Source: a virus
Direction: 5' to 3' (one strand)
Virus genome (UHGV): UHGV-0135983
DNA length: 35,851 nt
The number at the start of each line of letters is the position of its first letter. Position 1 is the stretch's first letter. The notes beneath the pieces were generated by a model. That model was given only the letters and a program-made list of their open reading frames with translations. It searched no databases and was not told the DNA's origin. Below, in pieces: positions 25,218 through 34,641 of this stretch. The position numbers and the translations under genes are program-made.

Positions 25218-25886
25218 TTATGCCCTCTTGTTCTTCGCTGACTCGATGTAATAACGGGGATCAACGCTGTTAAGCGTGAAGTGAACCACCGGCATATCGT
25301 CGTGACGGGTGATACCCACGTAATTCGACATGAACATGCCGAACACGCGATCGTGAAGTTCTTTAATCGTCACCTGACAATCTGGATAGTGCTTCTGGAT
25401 TAATGCCAGGATGCCCTGGTAAGAAAGCGTTTTGCCTTTCATCACGGCTACCAGCTGCTGCGCGGTGACGCTCCCGGCGTCCTGCTGTTCGTCGCTGGCC
25501 TGCAATGGGCGGATACTCTCCAGCACCAGACGGTGACGGCCAATACTGCCGACGCGCTGGCCCGTTTTTTTATCGAAATGCTCATTGGAGCCAGCAGACC
25601 AGACGGTCGCACCTTCGCTAAGGCGAACGCTTTTTTCACCTCTGGAATAAATCACGGTGCCGATGTGGGTTTTACGCCTGCGGCCGGAAACCGTAGGGGC
25701 GATAATTTCACGCTTAATCGGTTTTTGCGGGGTGATGCCGGGTACAGGGGCCGGACGTGGCGCCGCTACGAACACGGAACGGCTACGGGCGCGCGCGCCG
25801 GCGTTCATGCGCCAGAGAATAACGGGGAGCCAGTTGCAGCCATCATCCGGTTTTACTGGTTTTGGGTAATTTAAATTCGTGGTCAT
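25218..25886 (-). CDS. Hypothetical protein (222 aa)
   Basis: The ATG is preceded by the conserved GAGGAAAGACCAATG cassette. Confidence 0.6.
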   Translation of the reverse strand: MTTNLNYPKPVKPDDGCNWLPVILWRMNAGARARSRSVFVAAPRPAPVPGITPQKPIKREIIAPTVSGRRRKTHIGTVIYSRGEKSVRLSEGATVWSAGSNEHFDKKTGQRVGSIGRHRLVLESIRPLQASDEQQDAGSVTAQQLVAVMKGKTLSYQGILALIQKHYPDCQVTIKELHDRVFGMFMSNYVGITRHDDMPVVHFTLNSVDPRYYIESAKNKRA

Positions 25887-25906
25887 TGGTCTTTCCTCGG
25901 TTAAAT

Positions 25907-28313: not shown

Positions 28314-28535
28314 TCAAATCCCCAGCGAGTCAGCCAACTGACGGCAGGCGATTTCGTATTCTTTCTGGGTGAGTCCCGCTTCCTGCAGGTCTGCCTTGCG
28401 CAGTTCATAGCGTTCCCAGATTGTCAGCGCAGTAGCGCGACGCTCTTCGAAAATCGATTCGATATCTTCCATCGGGACTTGTACCCCGTTCCGGCGAAAC
28501 CCATTCCGCCAGGTGATGCGGTCTTGTGTTCTCAT
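28314..28535 (-). CDS. Small protein with Arg-rich N-terminus
   Basis: The ATG at 28535 follows the GAGGAAAGACCAATG cassette and gives MRTQDRITWRNGFRRNG... Confidence 0.5.
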   Translation of the reverse strand: MRTQDRITWRNGFRRNGVQVPMEDIESIFEERRATALTIWERYELRKADLQEAGLTQKEYEIACRQLADSLGI

Positions 28536-28555
28536 TGGTCTTTCCTCGGTACAGG

Positions 28556-29002
28556 TTAAACGCTGGTCAGGCGCTGTGTTTCTCGCATAGCTTGCAATGC
28601 TCTGGCGACTTGCTGCGGCCCGTCTCTGGCGTCGAGTAACAACGCGATAATCGCCGCTGCAAACTCGCGAATGGCCACACAAATTAAATACTGGGTGGAC
28701 ATACCCAAGCGCGCGTAACGTTCTGCCGGCAGCGCCGCTTCCATCGCTTTGACCAGCGCCAGAGTTTTGGCTCTCGCGGCTTTGGTCTCGCCTCGCAACC
28801 AACGAAAAATTTGTTGGCGGTTATTGTTGATTGCCCGCCAGTCGGCGTTTCCATCTGCATCTTCGATCTGGTGCAGCTTCAGCGAACCGGTATTACCACC
28901 AAGACGAAACCACATGCGGCTTATCTCGATAGCAACCAGCTCCTGCCCGCTTTCCGCTGCCCAGTTAAAGATCTCTCGTTTAAGTTCTTCGAGGTATTCC
29001 AC
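28556..29002 (-). CDS. CII-like / YdaT-family regulatory protein
   Basis: The protein is 148 aa with a GTG start after GGAG. It lies directly downstream of the YdaS/Cro-like gene, as in the Rac ydaS-ydaT pair. Confidence 0.5.
   Translation of the reverse strand: MEYLEELKREIFNWAAESGQELVAIEISRMWFRLGGNTGSLKLHQIEDADGNADWRAINNNRQQIFRWLRGETKAARAKTLALVKAMEAALPAERYARLGMSTQYLICVAIREFAAAIIALLLDARDGPQQVARALQAMRETQRLTSV
28559..28575 (-). promoter_or_regulatory. Hairpin with CUGACCA loop at the 3' end of the CII-like gene
   Basis: Minus-strand RNA reads AGCGC, CUGACCA, GCGUU. It includes a G.U pair that would be an A.C mismatch on the other strand. Confidence 0.45.
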
Positions 29003-29272: not shown

Positions 29273-29333
29273 CCTAACGTCAGTTAGGAACATAAATACT
29301 AACGAAAGTTATGTCAAGTTAACTTATATTATG
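29273..29333. promoter_or_regulatory. Immunity switch: three TAAC-N4-GTTA-type operators overlapping divergent promoters
   Basis: O1 is CCTAACGTCAGTTAGG (29273-29288). O2 is ACTAACGAAAGTTATG (29298-29313). O3 is GTTAACTTATATTATG (29318-29333, weaker). The minus-strand PR-like promoter is TTGACA (29317-29312), 17 nt, TATGTT (29294-29289). Confidence 0.6.
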
Positions 29334-29744
29334 GACATGAAAAAATTGACCTTTAACGATCGCATTACATCGAGACGGAAAGAGCTTGGCTTAACCCAAC
29401 AGCAGCTCGCCGATGCCGTTGGCATATCTGGCGTAAGCGTCTACAAGTGGGAAGCAGGTATTAACACCCCAAAAGGGCAAAATCTGTTTTCTCTCGCTGA
29501 GGCTCTTCGTTGCTCTCCGACATGGTTACTTAACGGAACCGATAGCGATGAACCGTTGAAGGCGGAAGACCTTTTACCTCGGTTAGATGATCGCCAAAAG
29601 CTATTGCTTGATCTTTTTGACTCCCTACCTGAATCAGAAAAAGATAGACACATCAATGAGTTGAAAGATAAAGTTGACGGATTCCAGCGATTGTTTGATG
29701 AGTTACTTTTGGTAAAAAAGAAAAAAAACACTCCAAAAAAATAA
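29331..29744 (+). CDS. cI: CI-like XRE-family repressor lacking an S24 peptidase domain
   Basis: The HTH is LTQQQLADAVGISGVSVYKWEAG. The protein is only 137 aa with a helical, charged C-terminus. There is no SD, and TATATT at 29325-29330 would give a leaderless mRNA starting at the second ATG (29337). Confidence 0.8.
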   Translation: MDMKKLTFNDRITSRRKELGLTQQQLADAVGISGVSVYKWEAGINTPKGQNLFSLAEALRCSPTWLLNGTDSDEPLKAEDLLPRLDDRQKLLLDLFDSLPESEKDRHINELKDKVDGFQRLFDELLLVKKKKNTPKK

Positions 29745-29793: not shown

Positions 29794-29844
29794 TAACTTT
29801 TGTTAGTAAAAAATATTGCCAATAAAAATACCTTTGGTTATGCT
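29794..29844 (+). promoter_or_regulatory. Fourth operator copy plus candidate promoter(s) for the downstream + strand genes
   Basis: The operator is TTAACTTTTGTTAG (TAAC-N4-GTTA at 29794-29805). One promoter option is TTGTTA-18-AAAAAT. The other is TTGCCA (29816), 17 nt, TATGCT (29839). Confidence 0.4.
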
Positions 29845-29926
29845 TCATCACATCAACGACGCACTAACCACGCGGCAGTTGTTCAGAAACGTTCCGCCGA
29901 CCCGGCGTTAAGGGGGAGGAGAAGTG

Positions 29927-30145
29927 ATGGAAAACGCTGTATTAGGTGCCGTCGGACCAACGCTGAATGTGTTGCTGGATGCACTGAAAGAAGAGAAAGG
30001 AGCCGCCAACGTCGAGGACGTCAAAGCGGTCATCCAGGTTATCAGTGAAGTTGTAGGCAAGTGCGATGGTGATCTGGCTACTGGTTACGCGGTTTGGGAT
30101 GAACTGCTGAATGCGGTGTTACGACATATTTCGACAAAGGGTTAA
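29927..30145 (+). CDS. Hypothetical acidic 72-aa protein in the immunity-adjacent slot
   Basis: A strong GGGGGAGGAG SD precedes the ATG at 29927. Confidence 0.5.
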   Translation: MENAVLGAVGPTLNVLLDALKEEKGAANVEDVKAVIQVISEVVGKCDGDLATGYAVWDELLNAVLRHISTKG

Positions 30146-30320
30146 GGCTAATACCCTCTGGTGGGTATAACTCTCGATTGATTCTCACGACTGCTGACAT
30201 GAAATCTACACGGTTATCAATCGGCATCGTAGACAAAATTACTGTCAATAATACCTGGTGTGCTTTCAGCTCTTCTCTGACTGCAGCTAGCTCAGATTTA
30301 AGTTGTTCAAGTTCCGACAT
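30078..30320 (-). CDS. Hypothetical 80-aa protein with an N-terminal coiled-coil, convergent with and overlapping the previous gene
   Basis: The ATG at 30320 follows AAGGG and gives a protein-like sequence, MSELEQLKSELAAVREELKAHQ... I could not find a convincing promoter. Confidence 0.35.
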   Translation of the reverse strand: MSELEQLKSELAAVREELKAHQVLLTVILSTMPIDNRVDFMSAVVRINRELYPPEGISLNPLSKYVVTPHSAVHPKPRNQ

Positions 30321-30424
30321 TTGTAATCCCTTTTGCTGTTGTTGGAATGGCAAAGGTAGCACGACCGGGCGTGTTGAAAAATCCCGGAACTGAATTCTTC
30401 GGGTCGCCGACAGTACGATGACAT

Positions 30425-30772
30425 GCGGGAAAGACCGCAACGAACATCCATTGCTGTGTGTAGTCTTGGCCGGGCGCCCCGGGCATTTTTTTAACACAGT
30501 AACGATTTATGCGACCCTTCAGTGAAAACTGAAGCCCTCGAAAAGAGGGACCCCGTGAGGAAAGACCAGTGAGCCTGACCAGCTCTGGCGCCGGGAAAGA
30601 CCGGGAGGAAAGACCAATGACCTACGGGCATGACCAGCCCTGACAGCCGGGAAAGACCGGCAACCTTTAGATGGCAAAAGGCCCGCACAAGGCGGGCCAG
30701 TTACCCCGAACGGTGACCAAACCATTCGGACTTATCACAAGCGACCAAGCTTGTGATGAGGAAAGACCAATG
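30425..30772 (+). repeat. ORF-poor array of repeated hairpins and RBS cassettes (possible structured RNA or regulatory array)
   Basis: CGGGAAAGACCG occurs three times (30426, 30592, 30648) and GAGGAAAGACCA three times (30557, 30605, 30758). The array holds seven stem-loops plus the terminator hairpin. It includes an imperfect tandem unit at 30557-30604 and 30605-30661. Confidence 0.55.
30470..30492 (+). terminator. Plus-strand intrinsic terminator
   Basis: The sequence is CCGGG, CGC, CCCGG, then GCATTTTTTT. The T7 run is on the + strand only. Confidence 0.5.
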
Positions 30773-30824
30773 CCGACAGAGTCAACACTGATCGGCTCTG
30801 AGTATACATCAACAAGGAGTCGCT

Positions 30825-31148
30825 ATGGAAGCGCTTACCATCCCCGTGAAGCTGTACATTCACTACATCACCAACACTTTCTCATCCGATAAATATCACG
30901 TTTCAATCTGTGACATGTCACGGAACCACCCGGACATTTATGTGCTGCTGGAAACGCGTGATATCACCATCGATATAAACCAGCCGGAACCCTTCGACCT
31001 TATAGCCTTGCAGGTTGACCAGCTGCGCAGCCAGAAAGAAAACCTTGCTGCCGACGCTCAACGCCAGATCGCCGCGGTCGATGACAAAATTCAGCAGCTG
31101 CTTTGCATCGATCATTCTCAGATTGAAGAAAGTGATATTCCCTTCTGA
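30825..31148 (+). CDS. Hypothetical protein (107 aa)
   Basis: An AAGGAG SD lies 6 nt upstream. The C-terminus is coiled-coil-like. Confidence 0.6.
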   Translation: MEALTIPVKLYIHYITNTFSSDKYHVSICDMSRNHPDIYVLLETRDITIDINQPEPFDLIALQVDQLRSQKENLAADAQRQIAAVDDKIQQLLCIDHSQIEESDIPF

Positions 31149-31155
31149 GGCGCTT

Positions 31156-31401
31156 ATGAAGAAAAATCCAGTTATCGAAAAAGTTATGGCTTCCGGCCTG
31201 TCTGTATTCGAGCATGAAAATAATAGCGACTTTGGTTCAGGAACTATGCATATCACTATTATCGGTGGTGTCCGACGCGTCGAATTCTATCCAACGACAG
31301 GCACAGTCTATGCCAATGCCGAGAAGGGAAAGTTTCCTGCATTCCGACAGAAAAAAGCCGGTATCGAAGTTGCAATCCGTCTCGCTAAATCCGGCGCCTG
31401 A
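31156..31401 (+). CDS. Hypothetical protein (81 aa)
   Basis: The ATG at 31156 follows GAGG and gives MKKNPVIEKV... Confidence 0.55.
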   Translation: MKKNPVIEKVMASGLSVFEHENNSDFGSGTMHITIIGGVRRVEFYPTTGTVYANAEKGKFPAFRQKKAGIEVAIRLAKSGA

Positions 31402-31430
31402 CCTGCGCCAGTAACTAAGAGGAAAGACCA

Positions 31431-33650
31431 ATGACCATCTACAACGGCTTATTTGAGCCAAAGAAATCGGCGATTAAAGACTGCGGCGCCGTGCAGCTGG
31501 CGATCGCCATCGATGCGCCAAACAAAAAAGTGGCCGAAAGCATTATGACCGGCAAACTCTGGGAATCATACCCGGCCAATGGTGACAACTATTTCAAACC
31601 GAAACTGTGGGAACACGTTGAAGGCCAGCCGCTGCCGACCGTTGGCCAGTTCGATGAGTCATTCGCCCAGCAGCATACTTTTGACGGTGAAAAATGGGTT
31701 TCTACTGCGCAGGATAGCGCTTCCGGAAGCAGTGCAGGTTTACCTGCCGACGATGAAGTGATCGACCTGATGACCGTTTCCGCAGAGGAACGCTTTGCTG
31801 CCGTCCTGCTTTTTAGCACCGCTGCGATTGATGGCCATCTTTATTCTCAGGTTGTGGATTATCTGGATAACCTGAAAAACCACGATGGCGAATTTGAAGA
31901 GGAAGATCGCTTTAACTTTAATGTGCTGTGCGCCCTACAAAATAACTTCCCGGTTCAAAGCATGCATGTGGAAGGTCTGAATAACCTTGTTCAGGGGATT
32001 TTCTCCCACTTTGAAAACCAGACGCCAGGCAAAGCGGCTATCTCTCAGTTCGTTAAACGCTGGCTTGAGAATCCGGGCAAGCGCGACGAACTGGCCCCCG
32101 GCGTATATAAAAATACCGCTCTCAGCACCAGCACCAGCACCAGCACCGATGATAAAACACCCGTGGTAATTTCTAAGCGGGGTTATAAACACACATATGC
32201 AACGCTGGATCAGGAGATCGCTACCGCCCTTCTCCCGCTGGCGCCTGATGCGCCGGTACTATCCGGAAACCTTCTGGACGCTAAGAAGATGATTGCCGAT
32301 GACCGGGAAGATTTTAAACGCTGGTCTGCATCGCTGCACACCACTCCGCAGATACTCAAATATGACCGCGCCAGCATCTTCGGTGTAGTGCAGAACGTAC
32401 CGGCGAAAGATACCTACCATTTCCCTGACAGCCTGCGCCGCCATATCGATTCATGGCTGGAGGCCAACGGCCGCTTTGAAGAAACCGATACAGGATCCGT
32501 TAAACAGACAGAGGCAACGCAAAATATCGCCTCAAACGTGGGCGAAAAAGCGGAAGTGCCGCAGACGGTTGTAACCGATAACCAAGCGAAACAGGCGCGT
32601 GAGGCGCTCAACGATATGGGCTATGGCGTATATGCATCTGGTGAAGGTGCGGAACCGGAAGATAAGTTAAGCGTTAAGGCTGAGAAAATAGCAGATGAAG
32701 CTGCTCGTTTGTCTCGTGATATTAACCTCAAAGATCGCATGCCAGATGCCGGAGATTTGATTCCAGCAATTCAACCAAATGAAAATATAGCCTCAAAAAA
32801 AATTGAATCATATCTATCTGAATTGAATGACGACCAGGCCAAAGCAAACCTTAGCGTCTGGAATCGCGTCCAGCGCACAGATCCGGCCTTCGTCGAAAAG
32901 AACAGTTTCGGCGCAGGGCTTCACTCAATCCGGGCGCAGTACATGCTGATGCGCGCAACGGAAGTTCTCGGAATGGAAGGAACCGGTTGGGGCGTTGATA
33001 TCAAAGAAGAGCGCATAGATCGAGGTGTGCCGCTTATGGAGCCAATACAGGACCAATCAGGAAAAATAATTGGCCAGAAACCGGTAAGGGACGGGGATGG
33101 CTCATTATTCTGTTTATCCGTACATACAATTCGGATTGAACTCTGGTACCTGCGAGACGGAAAGAAGGGGCGCATTCCGGCCTATGGACATACGGATTAC
33201 ATCACCAAGGGTGGTGATGGTGCATTAAAAATGGAGAAAGAAGCCGCCAAAAAATCACTGACTGACGCTACAACCAAAGCACTATCCCATCTCGGATTTG
33301 GTGCAGACGTGTACATGAACATGCATAACGACAACGAATACACTTCAAAATTGAATGAGATATTCGAAATCAAAAAAGCCAGCGAAAGCATAGAAGATAT
33401 AGTGCGACTTCGTCAGGAATTAGACGACGATCTTACCTCCGTTGCTGAAACCCTATCTACTGGCGTGACTGTTAACGAAGTTGAAAAGGTTTTTGGCACG
33501 ATAGCCCGAAAACTCGAAGTTCACCGCAAGGATGCAGAATCAAAAGGCGATACACAGCGCTCTCGGTACCTCAGTGGCCGGTTGCGCCGCCTGACTGAAA
33601 TCAAAAATGGACGTCTCGCCGAACTAAATAAATCCGAGGAGAAAGCATAA
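31431..33650 (+). CDS. Large fusion protein: unknown ~470-aa N-terminal region plus Rad52/Sak-type single-strand annealing domain
   Basis: The C-terminal part contains GLHSIRAQYMLMRATEVLGMEGTGWG...KEAAKKSLTDATTKALSHLGFGADVY, a Rad52-family signature. The RBS cassette lies at 31419. Confidence 0.6.
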   Translation: MTIYNGLFEPKKSAIKDCGAVQLAIAIDAPNKKVAESIMTGKLWESYPANGDNYFKPKLWEHVEGQPLPTVGQFDESFAQQHTFDGEKWVSTAQDSASGSSAGLPADDEVIDLMTVSAEERFAAVLLFSTAAIDGHLYSQVVDYLDNLKNHDGEFEEEDRFNFNVLCALQNNFPVQSMHVEGLNNLVQGIFSHFENQTPGKAAISQFVKRWLENPGKRDELAPGVYKNTALSTSTSTSTDDKTPVVISKRGYKHTYATLDQEIATALLPLAPDAPVLSGNLLDAKKMIADDREDFKRWSASLHTTPQILKYDRASIFGVVQNVPAKDTYHFPDSLRRHIDSWLEANGRFEETDTGSVKQTEATQNIASNVGEKAEVPQTVVTDNQAKQAREALNDMGYGVYASGEGAEPEDKLSVKAEKIADEAARLSRDINLKDRMPDAGDLIPAIQPNENIASKKIESYLSELNDDQAKANLSVWNRVQRTDPAFVEKNSFGAGLHSIRAQYMLMRATEVLGMEGTGWGVDIKEERIDRGVPLMEPIQDQSGKIIGQKPVRDGDGSLFCLSVHTIRIELWYLRDGKKGRIPAYGHTDYITKGGDGALKMEKEAAKKSLTDATTKALSHLGFGADVYMNMHNDNEYTSKLNEIFEIKKASESIEDIVRLRQELDDDLTSVAETLSTGVTVNEVEKVFGTIARKLEVHRKDAESKGDTQRSRYLSGRLRRLTEIKNGRLAELNKSEEKA

Positions 33651-34446: not shown

Positions 34447-34641
34447 ATGCTGCGATGGCAACCGGGAGCTGTATTGCTCTCAGATTTCGATATCAAGATT
34501 GGCCGGTTATCCGCCAGCGTACGAAAGAAGACCCTGACCAGGACTGAAATCGAACGCGCATGCGAAGAAGCTGATAACGCGATCGCCGGCATGATGAGGA
34601 AAGACCATGGTCAGAAAAAACGACCTTCTCACCGACGCTGA
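34447..34641 (+). CDS. Hypothetical small protein
   Basis: The ATG at 34447 follows GGAG. It overlaps the next gene by 35 nt, so support is weak. Confidence 0.3.
   Translation: MLRWQPGAVLLSDFDIKIGRLSASVRKKTLTRTEIERACEEADNAIAGMMRKDHGQKKRPSHRR

Follow-up and report, generated by a model that had tools for sequence, protein, structure and literature searches.

A Predicted Antisense RNA, Gene-Less Start Cassettes, and an RprA-Like Leader End in the Early-Left Control Region of a Lambdoid Prophage

Introduction

P22 sar and λ OOP are short cis-antisense RNAs of phage early and immunity regions, and the targets of the c4 RNA of phages P1 and P7 include, in P1, a ribosome-binding site (RBS). In phage P4, the CI RNA (seqA/seqC) is a phage antisense RNA that recognizes repeats in early transcripts (PMC4825925). 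Cluster K mycobacteriophages carry start-associated sequences (SAS) and extended start-associated sequences (ESAS), which are repeats at the start codons of a subset of nonstructural genes, with function unknown (PMC3203893). The host small RNA (sRNA) RprA (RF00034) has a processed form, RprAproc, which comprises its last 47 nt and is active alone (PMC9262595). Here we describe a locus that invites comparison with all of these. It lies in the virus genome UHGV-0135983, a stretch of 35,851 nt that was analyzed as a whole and is called the window below, and it comprises a predicted antisense sRNA, asC, together with copies of a short translation-start cassette to which part of asC is complementary.

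The original prediction, made from the sequence of the window, read positions 30425-30772 as an array of hairpins with invariant loops on variable stems, formed by a single plus-strand RNA, and it offered antitermination sites, protein-binding or sponge sites, and DNA iterons as competing readings. All of the listed stem-loops and the terminator were found when 29800-31400 was read again. On the sequence comparisons given here, this "hairpin array" is three adjoining RNA elements, namely, the end of a leader RNA, gene-less copies of the cassette, and an antisense RNA on the opposite strand. We propose, with about even confidence, that asC occludes the RBSs that contain the cassette and that the leader copies are decoys.

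asC, a Predicted Minus-Strand sRNA

The right third of the array, 30674-30793, is where the single plus-strand RNA fails, as this segment is read as a minus-strand sRNA. The stem-loops at 30680-30698, 30734-30757, and 30706-30729 (the last absent from the original prediction) belong to the opposite-strand RNA, which is predicted to consist of a 5′ hairpin, H0, followed by the anti-cassette, two hairpins, H1 and H2, and an intrinsic terminator (Table 1). In orthologues, the single mismatches in the 30734-30757 and 30706-30729 hairpins are all A·C when read on the plus strand and G·U when read on the minus strand, and the window's own 30706-30729 hairpin has the same pattern. This strand asymmetry bears out the proposal that selection acts on RNA structure, with conserved loops on variable stems.

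Covariation across homologous regions was found with RNAalifold and pair counts and again on an alignment made with a covariance model. The RNAalifold alignment, comprising 35 homologues (29 distinct) in the minus orientation, gives the three hairpins H0, H1, and H2. Among the 29 distinct homologues, 99.3% of 743 stem cells pair, versus 40-53% in slid controls, and 11 pairs have changes on both sides. The covariation score is 0.406, compared to 0.223 for shuffled alignments (0/500). Read on the minus strand, G·U accounts for 151 cells, vs 3 the other way. The minimum free energy is -65.8 kcal/mol on the minus strand (z -8.8), the plus strand giving -54.0. The covariance model, R1, was built from 37 sequences and finds one full copy in the window, at 30674-30770 (92.9 bits, E 5.5e-20), with 13-bit fragments only opposite the other cassettes. 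In 100 related loci it finds 83 full-length copies, one per locus, and in the model-based alignment (A8; 43 distinct sequences) 95.6% of cells pair and 13/19 pairs are double-changed. The element ranges from Klebsiella to Serratia phages and includes E. coli ST131, always with one copy per phage. Searches of the window and four related loci against Rfam at the gathering score returned nothing, and asC itself matches no family in Rfam 15. To judge by these alignments, the reading of asC as a structured minus-strand RNA is well supported.

H0 starts at an invariant G located 7 nt downstream of the asC -10 hexamer, which in diverged relatives is extended (TGnTATAAT/TGnTATACT). A GATC sequence, i.e., a Dam site, lies at 30790-30793, at the predicted asC start and within the first bases of H0, and is kept in nearly all homologues (CCGATCAG, CTGATCAG); methylation-sensitive expression of asC is a possibility that this site raises. 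A separate resemblance links asC to PL, the promoter of the early-left leader: the PL -10/start segment TTGGTTATGCTTCATCACA (29834-29852) is identical at 15/19 positions to the anti-cassette plus the 5′ arm of H1, TTGGTCTTTCCTCATCACA (30752-30770), and is reported as inverted repeat I4. This likeness may be coincidence, because the H1 stems vary between phages.

A Start Cassette Shared by Two Divergent Operons

The sequence opposite the anti-cassette is repeated. The core GGAAAGACC occurs exactly 10 times in the window, six of them on the plus strand at 30428-30768, within the 348-nt region, compared to about 0.27 copies that chance would give a 9-mer in 35.8 kb when both strands are counted. 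The remaining copies, at 31421 and 34598 (plus) and at 28545 and 25896 (minus), each lie within GAGGAAAGACCA(A)TG directly before an open reading frame (ORF). In all 10 cases, the orientation is that of the two divergent early operons.

The original prediction had noted an "RBS cassette" as a local feature of the array; it proves to be a phage-wide start-associated motif that stands before more than 25 different N-termini or gene families. The order of the module is an upstream stop codon, a GCGC-CUGACCA-GCG(C/U) hairpin, a 7-24-nt spacer, GAGGAAAGACC, 1-5 nt, and the AUG. The exact 10-mer AGGAAAGACC is present in 133/144 distinct modules. The 11 variant modules have A>G (5), C>U (4), or A>U (2) changes, and the nine with A>G or C>U retain pairing to asC as G·U. 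The 42 distinct four-pair stems of the gene-cassette hairpins include 12 G·U and no A·C; these hairpins are therefore sense-strand RNA structures. The cassette is unchanged, and stands before the same four classes of genes, in relatives from Serratia, Jejubacter, and Enterobacter, in which the neighbor protein is only about 52% identical, and the other genes of cassette phages use ordinary Shine-Dalgarno sequences (SDs). Taken from sequence, these observations suggest that the cassette marks a regulon.

Two further observations concern the cassette. Its core GGAAAGACC exactly matches nt 2056-2064 of E. coli 23S rRNA, within ACGGAAAGACCCCGU (2054-2068), and asC would therefore also be complementary to that rRNA segment; the chance of a 9-mer matching about 4.5 kb of rRNA is about 2%. 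The segment is the A2058 site, to which macrolides and Erm bind and which TLR13 recognizes (PMC12887398, PMC3661153). Also, a different type of phage (L133, L136, L155, L174, L180, L212, L221, L240, and L243; contigs of 51-85 kb where listed) has a single GAGGAAAGACCAATGACCAAA cassette, positioned directly after a terminator-like hairpin, GGGCGCA...TGCGCCC, and no asC-like element was found near the cassette in these phages.

Complementarity of asC to Early Gene Starts

The anti-cassette is perfectly complementary, over 12-15 nt extending from SD to AUG, to four early gene starts, located in both operons: those of the YdfE-like exonuclease, the excisionase-like, the phrog_2465, and the phrog_4183 genes. 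When the whole window was scanned for duplexes with the anti-cassette, the background was -7.3 ± 2.9 kcal/mol, and the seven best sites, at -26.9 to -35.7 kcal/mol, comprised the cis site, both array cassettes, and all four gene starts (exonuclease -26.9, excisionase-like -29.6, phrog_2465 -27.1, and phrog_4183 -26.9 kcal/mol). The next best duplex (-21.3 kcal/mol) is with a degenerate cassette-like sequence, GAGGCGAGACCAAAG, at 28795 on the minus strand, which sits inside the YdaT-like ORF and away from a start codon.

Cofolding takes the cost of opening structures into account. The net gain is -12.1 kcal/mol for the exonuclease, -13.3 for the excisionase-like, -11.5 for the phrog_2465, and -14.4 for the phrog_4183 gene start, and among 47 gene starts (median -2.2 kcal/mol) these four come next after the cis site. 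For the two array units, the gains are -16.4 and -15.5 kcal/mol. RNAduplex applied to full-length RNAs gave long duplexes without meaning and was uninformative. In addition, the UUGGUC loops of asC H1 and H2 are complementary to the GACCA core of the hairpin loops that precede the cassettes.

The plus-strand cassette overlapped by asC, at 30758-30772, has no gene, and its ATG is ACG in about half of the homologues. This gene-less cassette is nevertheless invariant in 83 loci, and its conservation is therefore best explained by a need for the anti-cassette. In the clade in which the corresponding asC segment ends CCUA, 10/12 gene cassettes have NAGG, vs 1/384 elsewhere, a match that is suggestive of covariation between asC and position 1 of the cassette. 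The IMG/VR contigs L279, L295, L305, and L327 form a diverged clade of this kind: the asC loops are GUGGUU in place of UUGGUC, the anti-cassette ends in CCUA, most gene cassettes start with NAGG, and some of the pre-cassette loops are CUAACCA.

The Middle Array

The segment 30495-30672 sits between two convergent terminators. It contains two leading hairpins and then two tandem units, each consisting of a cassette, a hairpin with a UGACCA-type loop (F2), and a hairpin with a GAAAGA loop (F1); the tandem arrangement, seen in the original prediction, was recovered by a repeat finder as families D1-D3. Cassette-F2-F1 is the minimal inter-terminator unit, with its position kept from Klebsiella to Serratia phages, and the length of the array varies from 262 to 439 nt among relatives, with whole units gained or lost. 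The array has no credible ORF, as had been claimed: the ATG of the array cassettes is missing in about half of the homologues (GACCAACGA, GACCAAAGAG), those without a start codon at cassette copy 1 being GACCAAAGAG and GACCGTAGAG. Short ORFs as the functional units are ruled out, since homologues do not keep the start codons that follow the array cassettes.

Against shuffles, the fold of the middle array has z -2.44 on the plus strand and -0.03 on the minus strand. The strand assignment of the F1 and F2 array hairpins rests on these one-strand fold z-scores, as wobble counts did not separate the strands. RNAalifold finds almost no covariation among close orthologues, in which the stems hardly vary, and the long-range pairing it proposes between the RprA box of the leader (see below) and hairpin F1c involves only columns that do not vary; it is paralogous and more distant copies that supply the evidence for structure. 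The first hairpin, CTTCAGT-GAAA-ACTGAAG, has the variants CTTCGGT/ACCGAAG and CTCTGGT/ACCAGAG. The claim that family 1 (F1) shows compensatory stems holds in part. Within the window, only the outer 1-2 pairs differ, as the shared 12-mer already holds 3 pairs; compensation is supplied by the homologues, in GCCCG-GAAAGA-CGGGC and GUCCG-GAAAGA-CGGGC. F1 hairpins are found only in the PL leader, on both sides of the terminator, and never at gene boundaries.

The PL Leader and Its RprA-Like 3′ End

Upstream of the middle array, the leader that starts at PL carries CATCAACGACGCACTAACCACGCGGCAGTTGTTCAGAAAC, which is conserved in relatives, and ends in hairpin F1a, an RprA box, and an intrinsic terminator. 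This terminator, at 30470-30492, was correctly recognized in the original prediction but was placed inside the array, whereas it forms the end of an RprA-like leader RNA. In E-value mode, the only informative Rfam similarity is to RprA, which cmscan matches to 30388-30494 (plus) with 32.6 bits (E 0.16) and, in the E. coli SE11 prophage, with 37.4 bits (E 0.012), both scores being below the gathering threshold of 70. The alignment shares with K-12 rprA only the 3′ part, about 47 nt made up of ATTGCTGTGTGTAGTCTT, a GC-rich terminator, and TTTTTTTAACA. An RprAproc-type 3′ domain, i.e., the box AUUGCUGUGUGUAGUCUU followed by an intrinsic terminator and UUUUUUUAACA, is present. No credible alignment was found upstream of the box to the 5′ stem-loops and the rpoS-pairing region of RprA, and at the position of that 5′ region relatives carry unrelated inserts of 190-350 nt. 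In 36 distinct homologous regions the box is nearly invariant and the terminator stem takes at least 6 compensatory forms; the copy in L137 also has the K-12 rprA terminator stem. As far as sequence tells, the 3′ segment of the PL leader (30425-30492) closes with a box-terminator module that is homologous to the last ~47 nt of RprA.

In compact relatives, the leader after PL is 169 nt long and has two GAAAGA-loop hairpins, the second being GUCCG-GAAAGA-CGGGC; PL lies about 170 nt upstream of the RprA-like terminator at which the leader ends. A short RprA-like RNA would therefore be the first product of PL. A search of the phage genome with the RprA-like seed found no target beyond its own antisense.

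The window's leader differs from those of its relatives in two respects. First, the window and the SE11-type phages have an extra module, 29924-30320, in place of the compact relatives' first GAAAGA hairpin; it contains a 73-aa acidic ORF at 29924-30145 (plus) and an overlapping, convergent 80-aa ORF at 30320-30078 (minus; phrog_20080). Second, the window is without the 190-350-nt insert that many relatives have between the first GAAAGA hairpin and the RprA box. An example of the insert is at L003:3125-3445, in the E. coli SE11 prophage, with variants in L001, L002, L010, L137, and L223. It ends in a tRNA-like element (T-arm GGTTCGATTCC) with a weak tRNA-Sec match of 19 bits and a fold z-score of -2.5; ARAGORN and Rfam at the gathering score find nothing in the insert. 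It may be a processing signal or a structured RNA.

A Proposed Early Switch and Its Alternatives

From the anatomy, strand, covariation, conservation, and complementarity described above, we infer that asC would be expressed, would repress, and would be titrated by the array, as follows. asC would pair with the cassette RBSs and block translation of the four early genes, and its UUGGUC loops may kiss the UGACCA loops that precede the cassettes. The segment 30495-30672 would be transcribed only when PL transcription reads through the RprA-like terminator. Upon induction, strong PL transcription would run convergently across the asC promoter, and the read-through would supply the gene-less cassettes as decoys together with a full complement of asC. 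Convergent transcription and decoys would jointly relieve the block. A sponge or decoy role for part of the region, one of the readings first offered, is thus plausible, though for the cassettes rather than for the F1 hairpins. A more ambitious version, which we regard as a long shot, would have a three-RNA switch: asC silences the early set, leader decoys titrate it, and the PL leader mimics the RprA 3′ domain, tying the switch to the Rcs/RprA regulon. A longer shot, based on the match of the cassette core to the A2058 loop of 23S rRNA, would be an interface of the cassette and asC with a ribosomal or rRNA-binding factor.

A number of observations weigh against this model of asC action. In the window, the asC promoter is without a recognizable -35 and without TGn in the promoter scan, and it may be weak or activator-dependent. 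H0 sequesters the UUGGUC half of the anti-cassette, leaving about 4-7 nt open. Strict covariation of the asC loops with the target loops was looked for and not found, and L231-type phages combine UAACCA loops with UUGGUC loops. The statistics of the cassette variants are weak (p ~0.04) and confounded by SD function; the CCUA/NAGG match could be explained by the shared ancestry of one clade; and the invariance of the cassette across genera would equally fit a universal protein or ribosomal partner. Finally, the GAAAGA-loop hairpins are not explained by the model. In a cofold of the RprA-like RNA with asC, F1 gains nothing (-0.1 kcal/mol), and the orthologue GCCCG-GAAAGA-CGGGC retains the hairpin and loses one of the bases that pair with asC; F1 therefore looks selected for shape, not for asC pairing. 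With that cofold value, F1 hairpins as asC decoys are unsupported.

The alternative that fares best, which we think unlikely but take seriously, is that asC acts only in cis on the PL read-through transcript, as sar and OOP do. It would bring about RNase III cleavage, transcriptional interference, or termination before the recombination, xis, and int genes are reached. The cassette would then be conserved for another reason, for example as an efficient initiation region spread by modular recombination, and the complementarity of asC to other genes would be a by-product. Over 120 nt of the PL transcript the complementarity to asC is complete, and asC is convergent with PL; the hairpin-cassette module is found exactly where many unrelated genes adjoin, which is where recombination linkers would be expected; and the sequestration of half of the anti-cassette by H0 suits an RNA acting only in cis. 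The asC-internal cassette, however, serves no gene and is invariant in 83 loci. Moreover, 12-15 nt of perfect complementarity to four genes exceeds that of most proven sRNA-target pairs, so that an effect in trans is hard to avoid if asC is made, and neighboring genes use ordinary SDs, i.e., the cassette is not needed for translation as such.

A protein could also be the partner. The cassettes and the GAAAGA and UGACCA loops would then be sites for an RNA-binding protein of phage or host, for example a CsrA-like protein, with the array as a platform or sponge, a reading that we consider doubtful. It is consistent with the invariance of the loops on variable stems, the retention of the F1 shape where asC pairing is lost, the invariance of the cassette across host genera, and the AGGA within the cassette. 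Yet Pfam and PHROG show no RNA-binding domain among the early genes, and there is no Rfam match of the CsrB/CsrC/RsmZ type. The GGA of F1 straddles the stem-loop junction, and the cassettes present a single-stranded AGGA within the SD. A protein partner also leaves a dedicated, covarying antisense RNA with the exact complement unexplained. The product of phrog_2479, which adjoins the array, was considered as the RNA-binding partner and dropped: its AlphaFold 2 (AF2) model is confident (pLDDT 86), with no fold match in the PDB at E <0.3 and without an RNA-binding signature.

Antitermination was among the original competing readings. Here, the F1 and/or CCCUC hairpins would be boxB- or put-like and would load or modify RNA polymerase for processive read-through of the RprA-like terminator, which we hold to be quite improbable. 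A strong terminator does stand between PL and the recombination, xis, and int genes, and the promoter scan detects no downstream plus-strand promoter; therefore, some read-through device is needed. F1, with its GC stem and purine-rich GAAAGA loop, is confined to the PL leader, on both sides of that terminator, and resembles boxB. For the CCCUC-GAAAA-GAGGG hairpin, the likeness to boxB breaks down, as its loop varies in orthologues (GAAAA, GAGGA, GAAGA, CAAGA, and GUAGA), and the F1 loop is conserved but has six nt and is not a pentaloop. A nut site is likewise contradicted by a leader without boxA and by the absence of an N-like protein: no boxA (CGCUCUU(U)A) with ≤3 mismatches occurs at 29850-30830 (window-wide, 28 vs 31 expected), and Pfam and PHROG find no N-like or arginine-rich protein among the early ORFs. 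In compact relatives, the stretch from PL to the terminator contains no ORF, the rightward operon has no F1 site, and Rfam gives no match.

Lastly, a DNA-level feature, whether iterons or protein sites or scars of cassette-linker recombination that deleted intervening genes, is hardly credible: the repeats are dense and partly tandem and whole units come and go with array length, but every copy follows the direction of transcription in both of the divergent operons, the fold is one-strand only, the G·U vs A·C asymmetry is strand-specific and opposite for asC and the mRNA hairpins, which indicates selection on RNA, the cassette-F2-F1 unit keeps its place from Klebsiella to Serratia phages, and F1 hairpins are never at gene boundaries.

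Prophage Setting and Distribution

The window is a lambdoid prophage of Klebsiella type, and the array region belongs to its early-left control region. A Cro-like gene (29262-29065, minus) is adjacent to a helix-turn-helix repressor gene (29331-29744, plus). The plus-strand early genes, as assigned by Pfam and PHROG, encode a YdfE-like 739-aa exonuclease, a Gp157/Gam-like protein, a DUF4224 excisionase-like protein, and integrase; the minus-strand early genes encode YdaT-like, replication, and helicase proteins. Likely repressor operators, TAAC-N4-GTTA, are located at 29275-29311, in the gap between cro and the repressor gene, and at 29794-29808, just upstream of PL; none was found near the asC promoter in the window.

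The protein adjoining the array has its closest match in a Klebsiella michiganensis protein (98% identity). Relatives come from Raoultella, Citrobacter, Salmonella, Enterobacter, Serratia, and Jejubacter. Of 5426 complete E. coli genomes, 450 (about 8%) carry the prophage family with asC, at 95-100% identity, and the E. coli carriers listed belong mostly to the O25b:H4-ST131 lineage, including EC958, in which the locus lies around 3277258-3277438 of NZ_CP138232.1. Two deposited "Stenotrophomonas" phages are also relatives. In annotated relatives there is no gene call across the 0.7-1.0 kb from the repressor to a 107-aa gene. A protein scan of genome contigs found no relative, and an exact 15-mer scan of the same kind of contigs was dominated by chance single matches.

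Table 1. Positions of the leader, array, asC, and cassette features in the window.
Feature	Position	Strand	Details
PL-type promoter TTGCCA-17-TATGCT	29816-29844	+	From promoter scan; starts the early-left leader
F1a hairpin GCGG-GAAAGA-CCGC	30425-30438	+	PL leader; orthologous copies in all relatives
RprA box ATTGCTGTGTGTAGTCTT	30450-30467	+	18/18 nt identical to E. coli K-12 rprA
Intrinsic terminator CCGGG-CGC-CCCGG + U7	30470-30492 (stem 30470-30482)	+	Ends the RprA-like leader RNA
Hairpin CTTCAGT-GAAA-ACTGAAG	30517-30534	+	GNRA loop conserved
Hairpin CCCTC-GAAAA-GAGGG	30535-30549	+	Loop not conserved
Gene-less cassette copy 1, GAGGAAAGACCAGTG	30557-30571	+	Duplex with anti-cassette -29.0 kcal/mol
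F2a hairpin GAGC-CTGACCA-GCTC	30571-30585	+	
F1b hairpin CCGG-GAAAGA-CCGG	30591-30604	+	
Gene-less cassette copy 2, GAGGAAAGACCAATG	30605-30619	+	Duplex with anti-cassette -27.1 kcal/mol
F2b hairpin GGGC-ATGACCA-GCCC	30626-30640	+	
F1c hairpin GCCGG-GAAAGA-CCGGC	30646-30661	+	Compensatory variant GCCCG-GAAAGA-CGGGC
asC, predicted antisense sRNA of ~120 nt	30793-30674	-	H0, anti-cassette, H1, H2, terminator
asC -10 hexamer TATACT	30806-30801	-	TATACT/TATAAT in all homologues
asC H0, 5′ hairpin	30793-30765	-	
asC anti-cassette CAUUGGUCUUUCCUC	30772-30758	-	UUUCCUC predicted single-stranded between H0 and H1
asC H1	30757-30734	-	9-bp stem, loop UUGGUC
asC H2	30729-30706	-	Loop UUGGUC
asC terminator GGCCCGC...GCGGGCC + U run	30698-30680	-	U6-7 in most relatives
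Cassette, SD to AUG of the 739-aa YdfE-like exonuclease gene (start 31431)	31419-31433	+	GGCGC-CTGACCT-GCGCC hairpin upstream
Cassette, start of the DUF4224/excisionase-like gene (34607)	34596-34609	+	
Cassette, start of the phrog_2465 gene after YdaT-like (28535)	28533-28547	-	GCGC-CTGACCA-GCGT hairpin upstream
Cassette, start of the phrog_4183 gene after the DnaB-like helicase (25886)	25884-25898	-	GCGC-CTGACCA-GCGC hairpin upstream

Significance

If the asC model is right, an early regulon of several genes in two operons is under the control of one sRNA and one shared RBS cassette, and the decoys are built in. Such logic is known piecemeal, from P1 c4, P4 CI, P22 sar, and sponge RNAs, and is not known in this combination. 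It would also provide the first testable mechanism for start-associated sequences, a question open since 2011 (PMC3203893). The family is common in clinically important hosts, i.e., E. coli ST131, Klebsiella, Salmonella, Enterobacter, and Serratia, and a prophage RNA that mimics RprA could affect host control of stress, biofilm, or conjugation. A literature search on the cassette strings, on RprA together with prophage, and on ST131/EC958 sRNAs turned up no paper that describes the cassette, asC, or an RprA mimic in a prophage, and a preprint on Pas-sRNA is unrelated to the cassette or asC. Regardless of mechanism, asC is a new RNA family with 83 members here, absent from Rfam 15, and of use for annotation.

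Comparison with Known Systems

The predicted asC resembles sar and OOP in being a small RNA opposite an early operon, convergent with a strong early promoter and complementary to an RBS, with an intrinsic terminator. Like them, it would have its own, constitutive-looking promoter, of which the -10 is conserved while no convincing -35 was found. It differs in that its cis "target" is a cassette without a gene behind it, and in that the complement recurs, over 12-15 nt, at four gene starts in both operons, so that action in trans would be expected. There is no sequence or Rfam relationship between asC and sar or OOP.

The likeness to CI and c4 RNAs lies in the short repeats at several sites in early transcripts, including an untranslated leader, in putative recognition through hairpin loops, and in a proposed role in keeping lytic genes silent. 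However, CI and c4 arise by processing of the early transcript that contains their targets, whereas asC is encoded on the other strand, where it has a -10 and a 5′ hairpin of its own, and the putative asC targets are a conserved SD-to-AUG cassette on several genes. No Rfam family of the C4/CI/IsrK type matches at the gathering score; the best matches are isrK at 14.1 bits (E 3.2) and isrB at 16.6 bits, covering the terminator only.

With the λ and P22 nut sites the locus shares GC-stem hairpins with purine-rich loops in an early-left leader, upstream of a terminator. Apart from the variable loop and the missing boxA and N-like protein noted above, it differs in that the array's UGACCA-loop hairpins recur before many genes, and not once per operon. 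With RprA, the leader end has ATTGCTGTGTGTAGTCTT, the GC-rich terminator, and TTTTTTTAACA in common, and the box stays invariant while the terminator stems drift. RprA is a chromosomal, Rcs-controlled gene, whereas the phage element is its 3′ third only, scores below the gathering threshold, and sits at the end of a prophage PL leader. The anti-sRNAs AgvB and AsxR (PMC4104026) and sponges of the CsrB type likewise have repeated target-like motifs in a noncoding transcript that could titrate a regulator. In the present case the regulator presumed to be titrated is the phage's own antisense RNA, and the motifs copy a translation-initiation cassette, not a host sRNA target or GGA loops.

The cassette itself is closest to the SAS. 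Both are short asymmetric repeats directly upstream of start codons, co-oriented, with an inverted repeat upstream of a part of the sites (about half), and both are conserved in association with particular gene families. The sequences differ, GGGATAGGAGCCC in mycobacteriophages vs GAGGAAAGACC in enterobacterial prophages, as do the host phylum and the type of phage. For SAS, no antisense RNA or gene-less array has been reported, in contrast to the complementary sRNA predicted here. The cassette and the SAS are thus alike in kind, not homologous.

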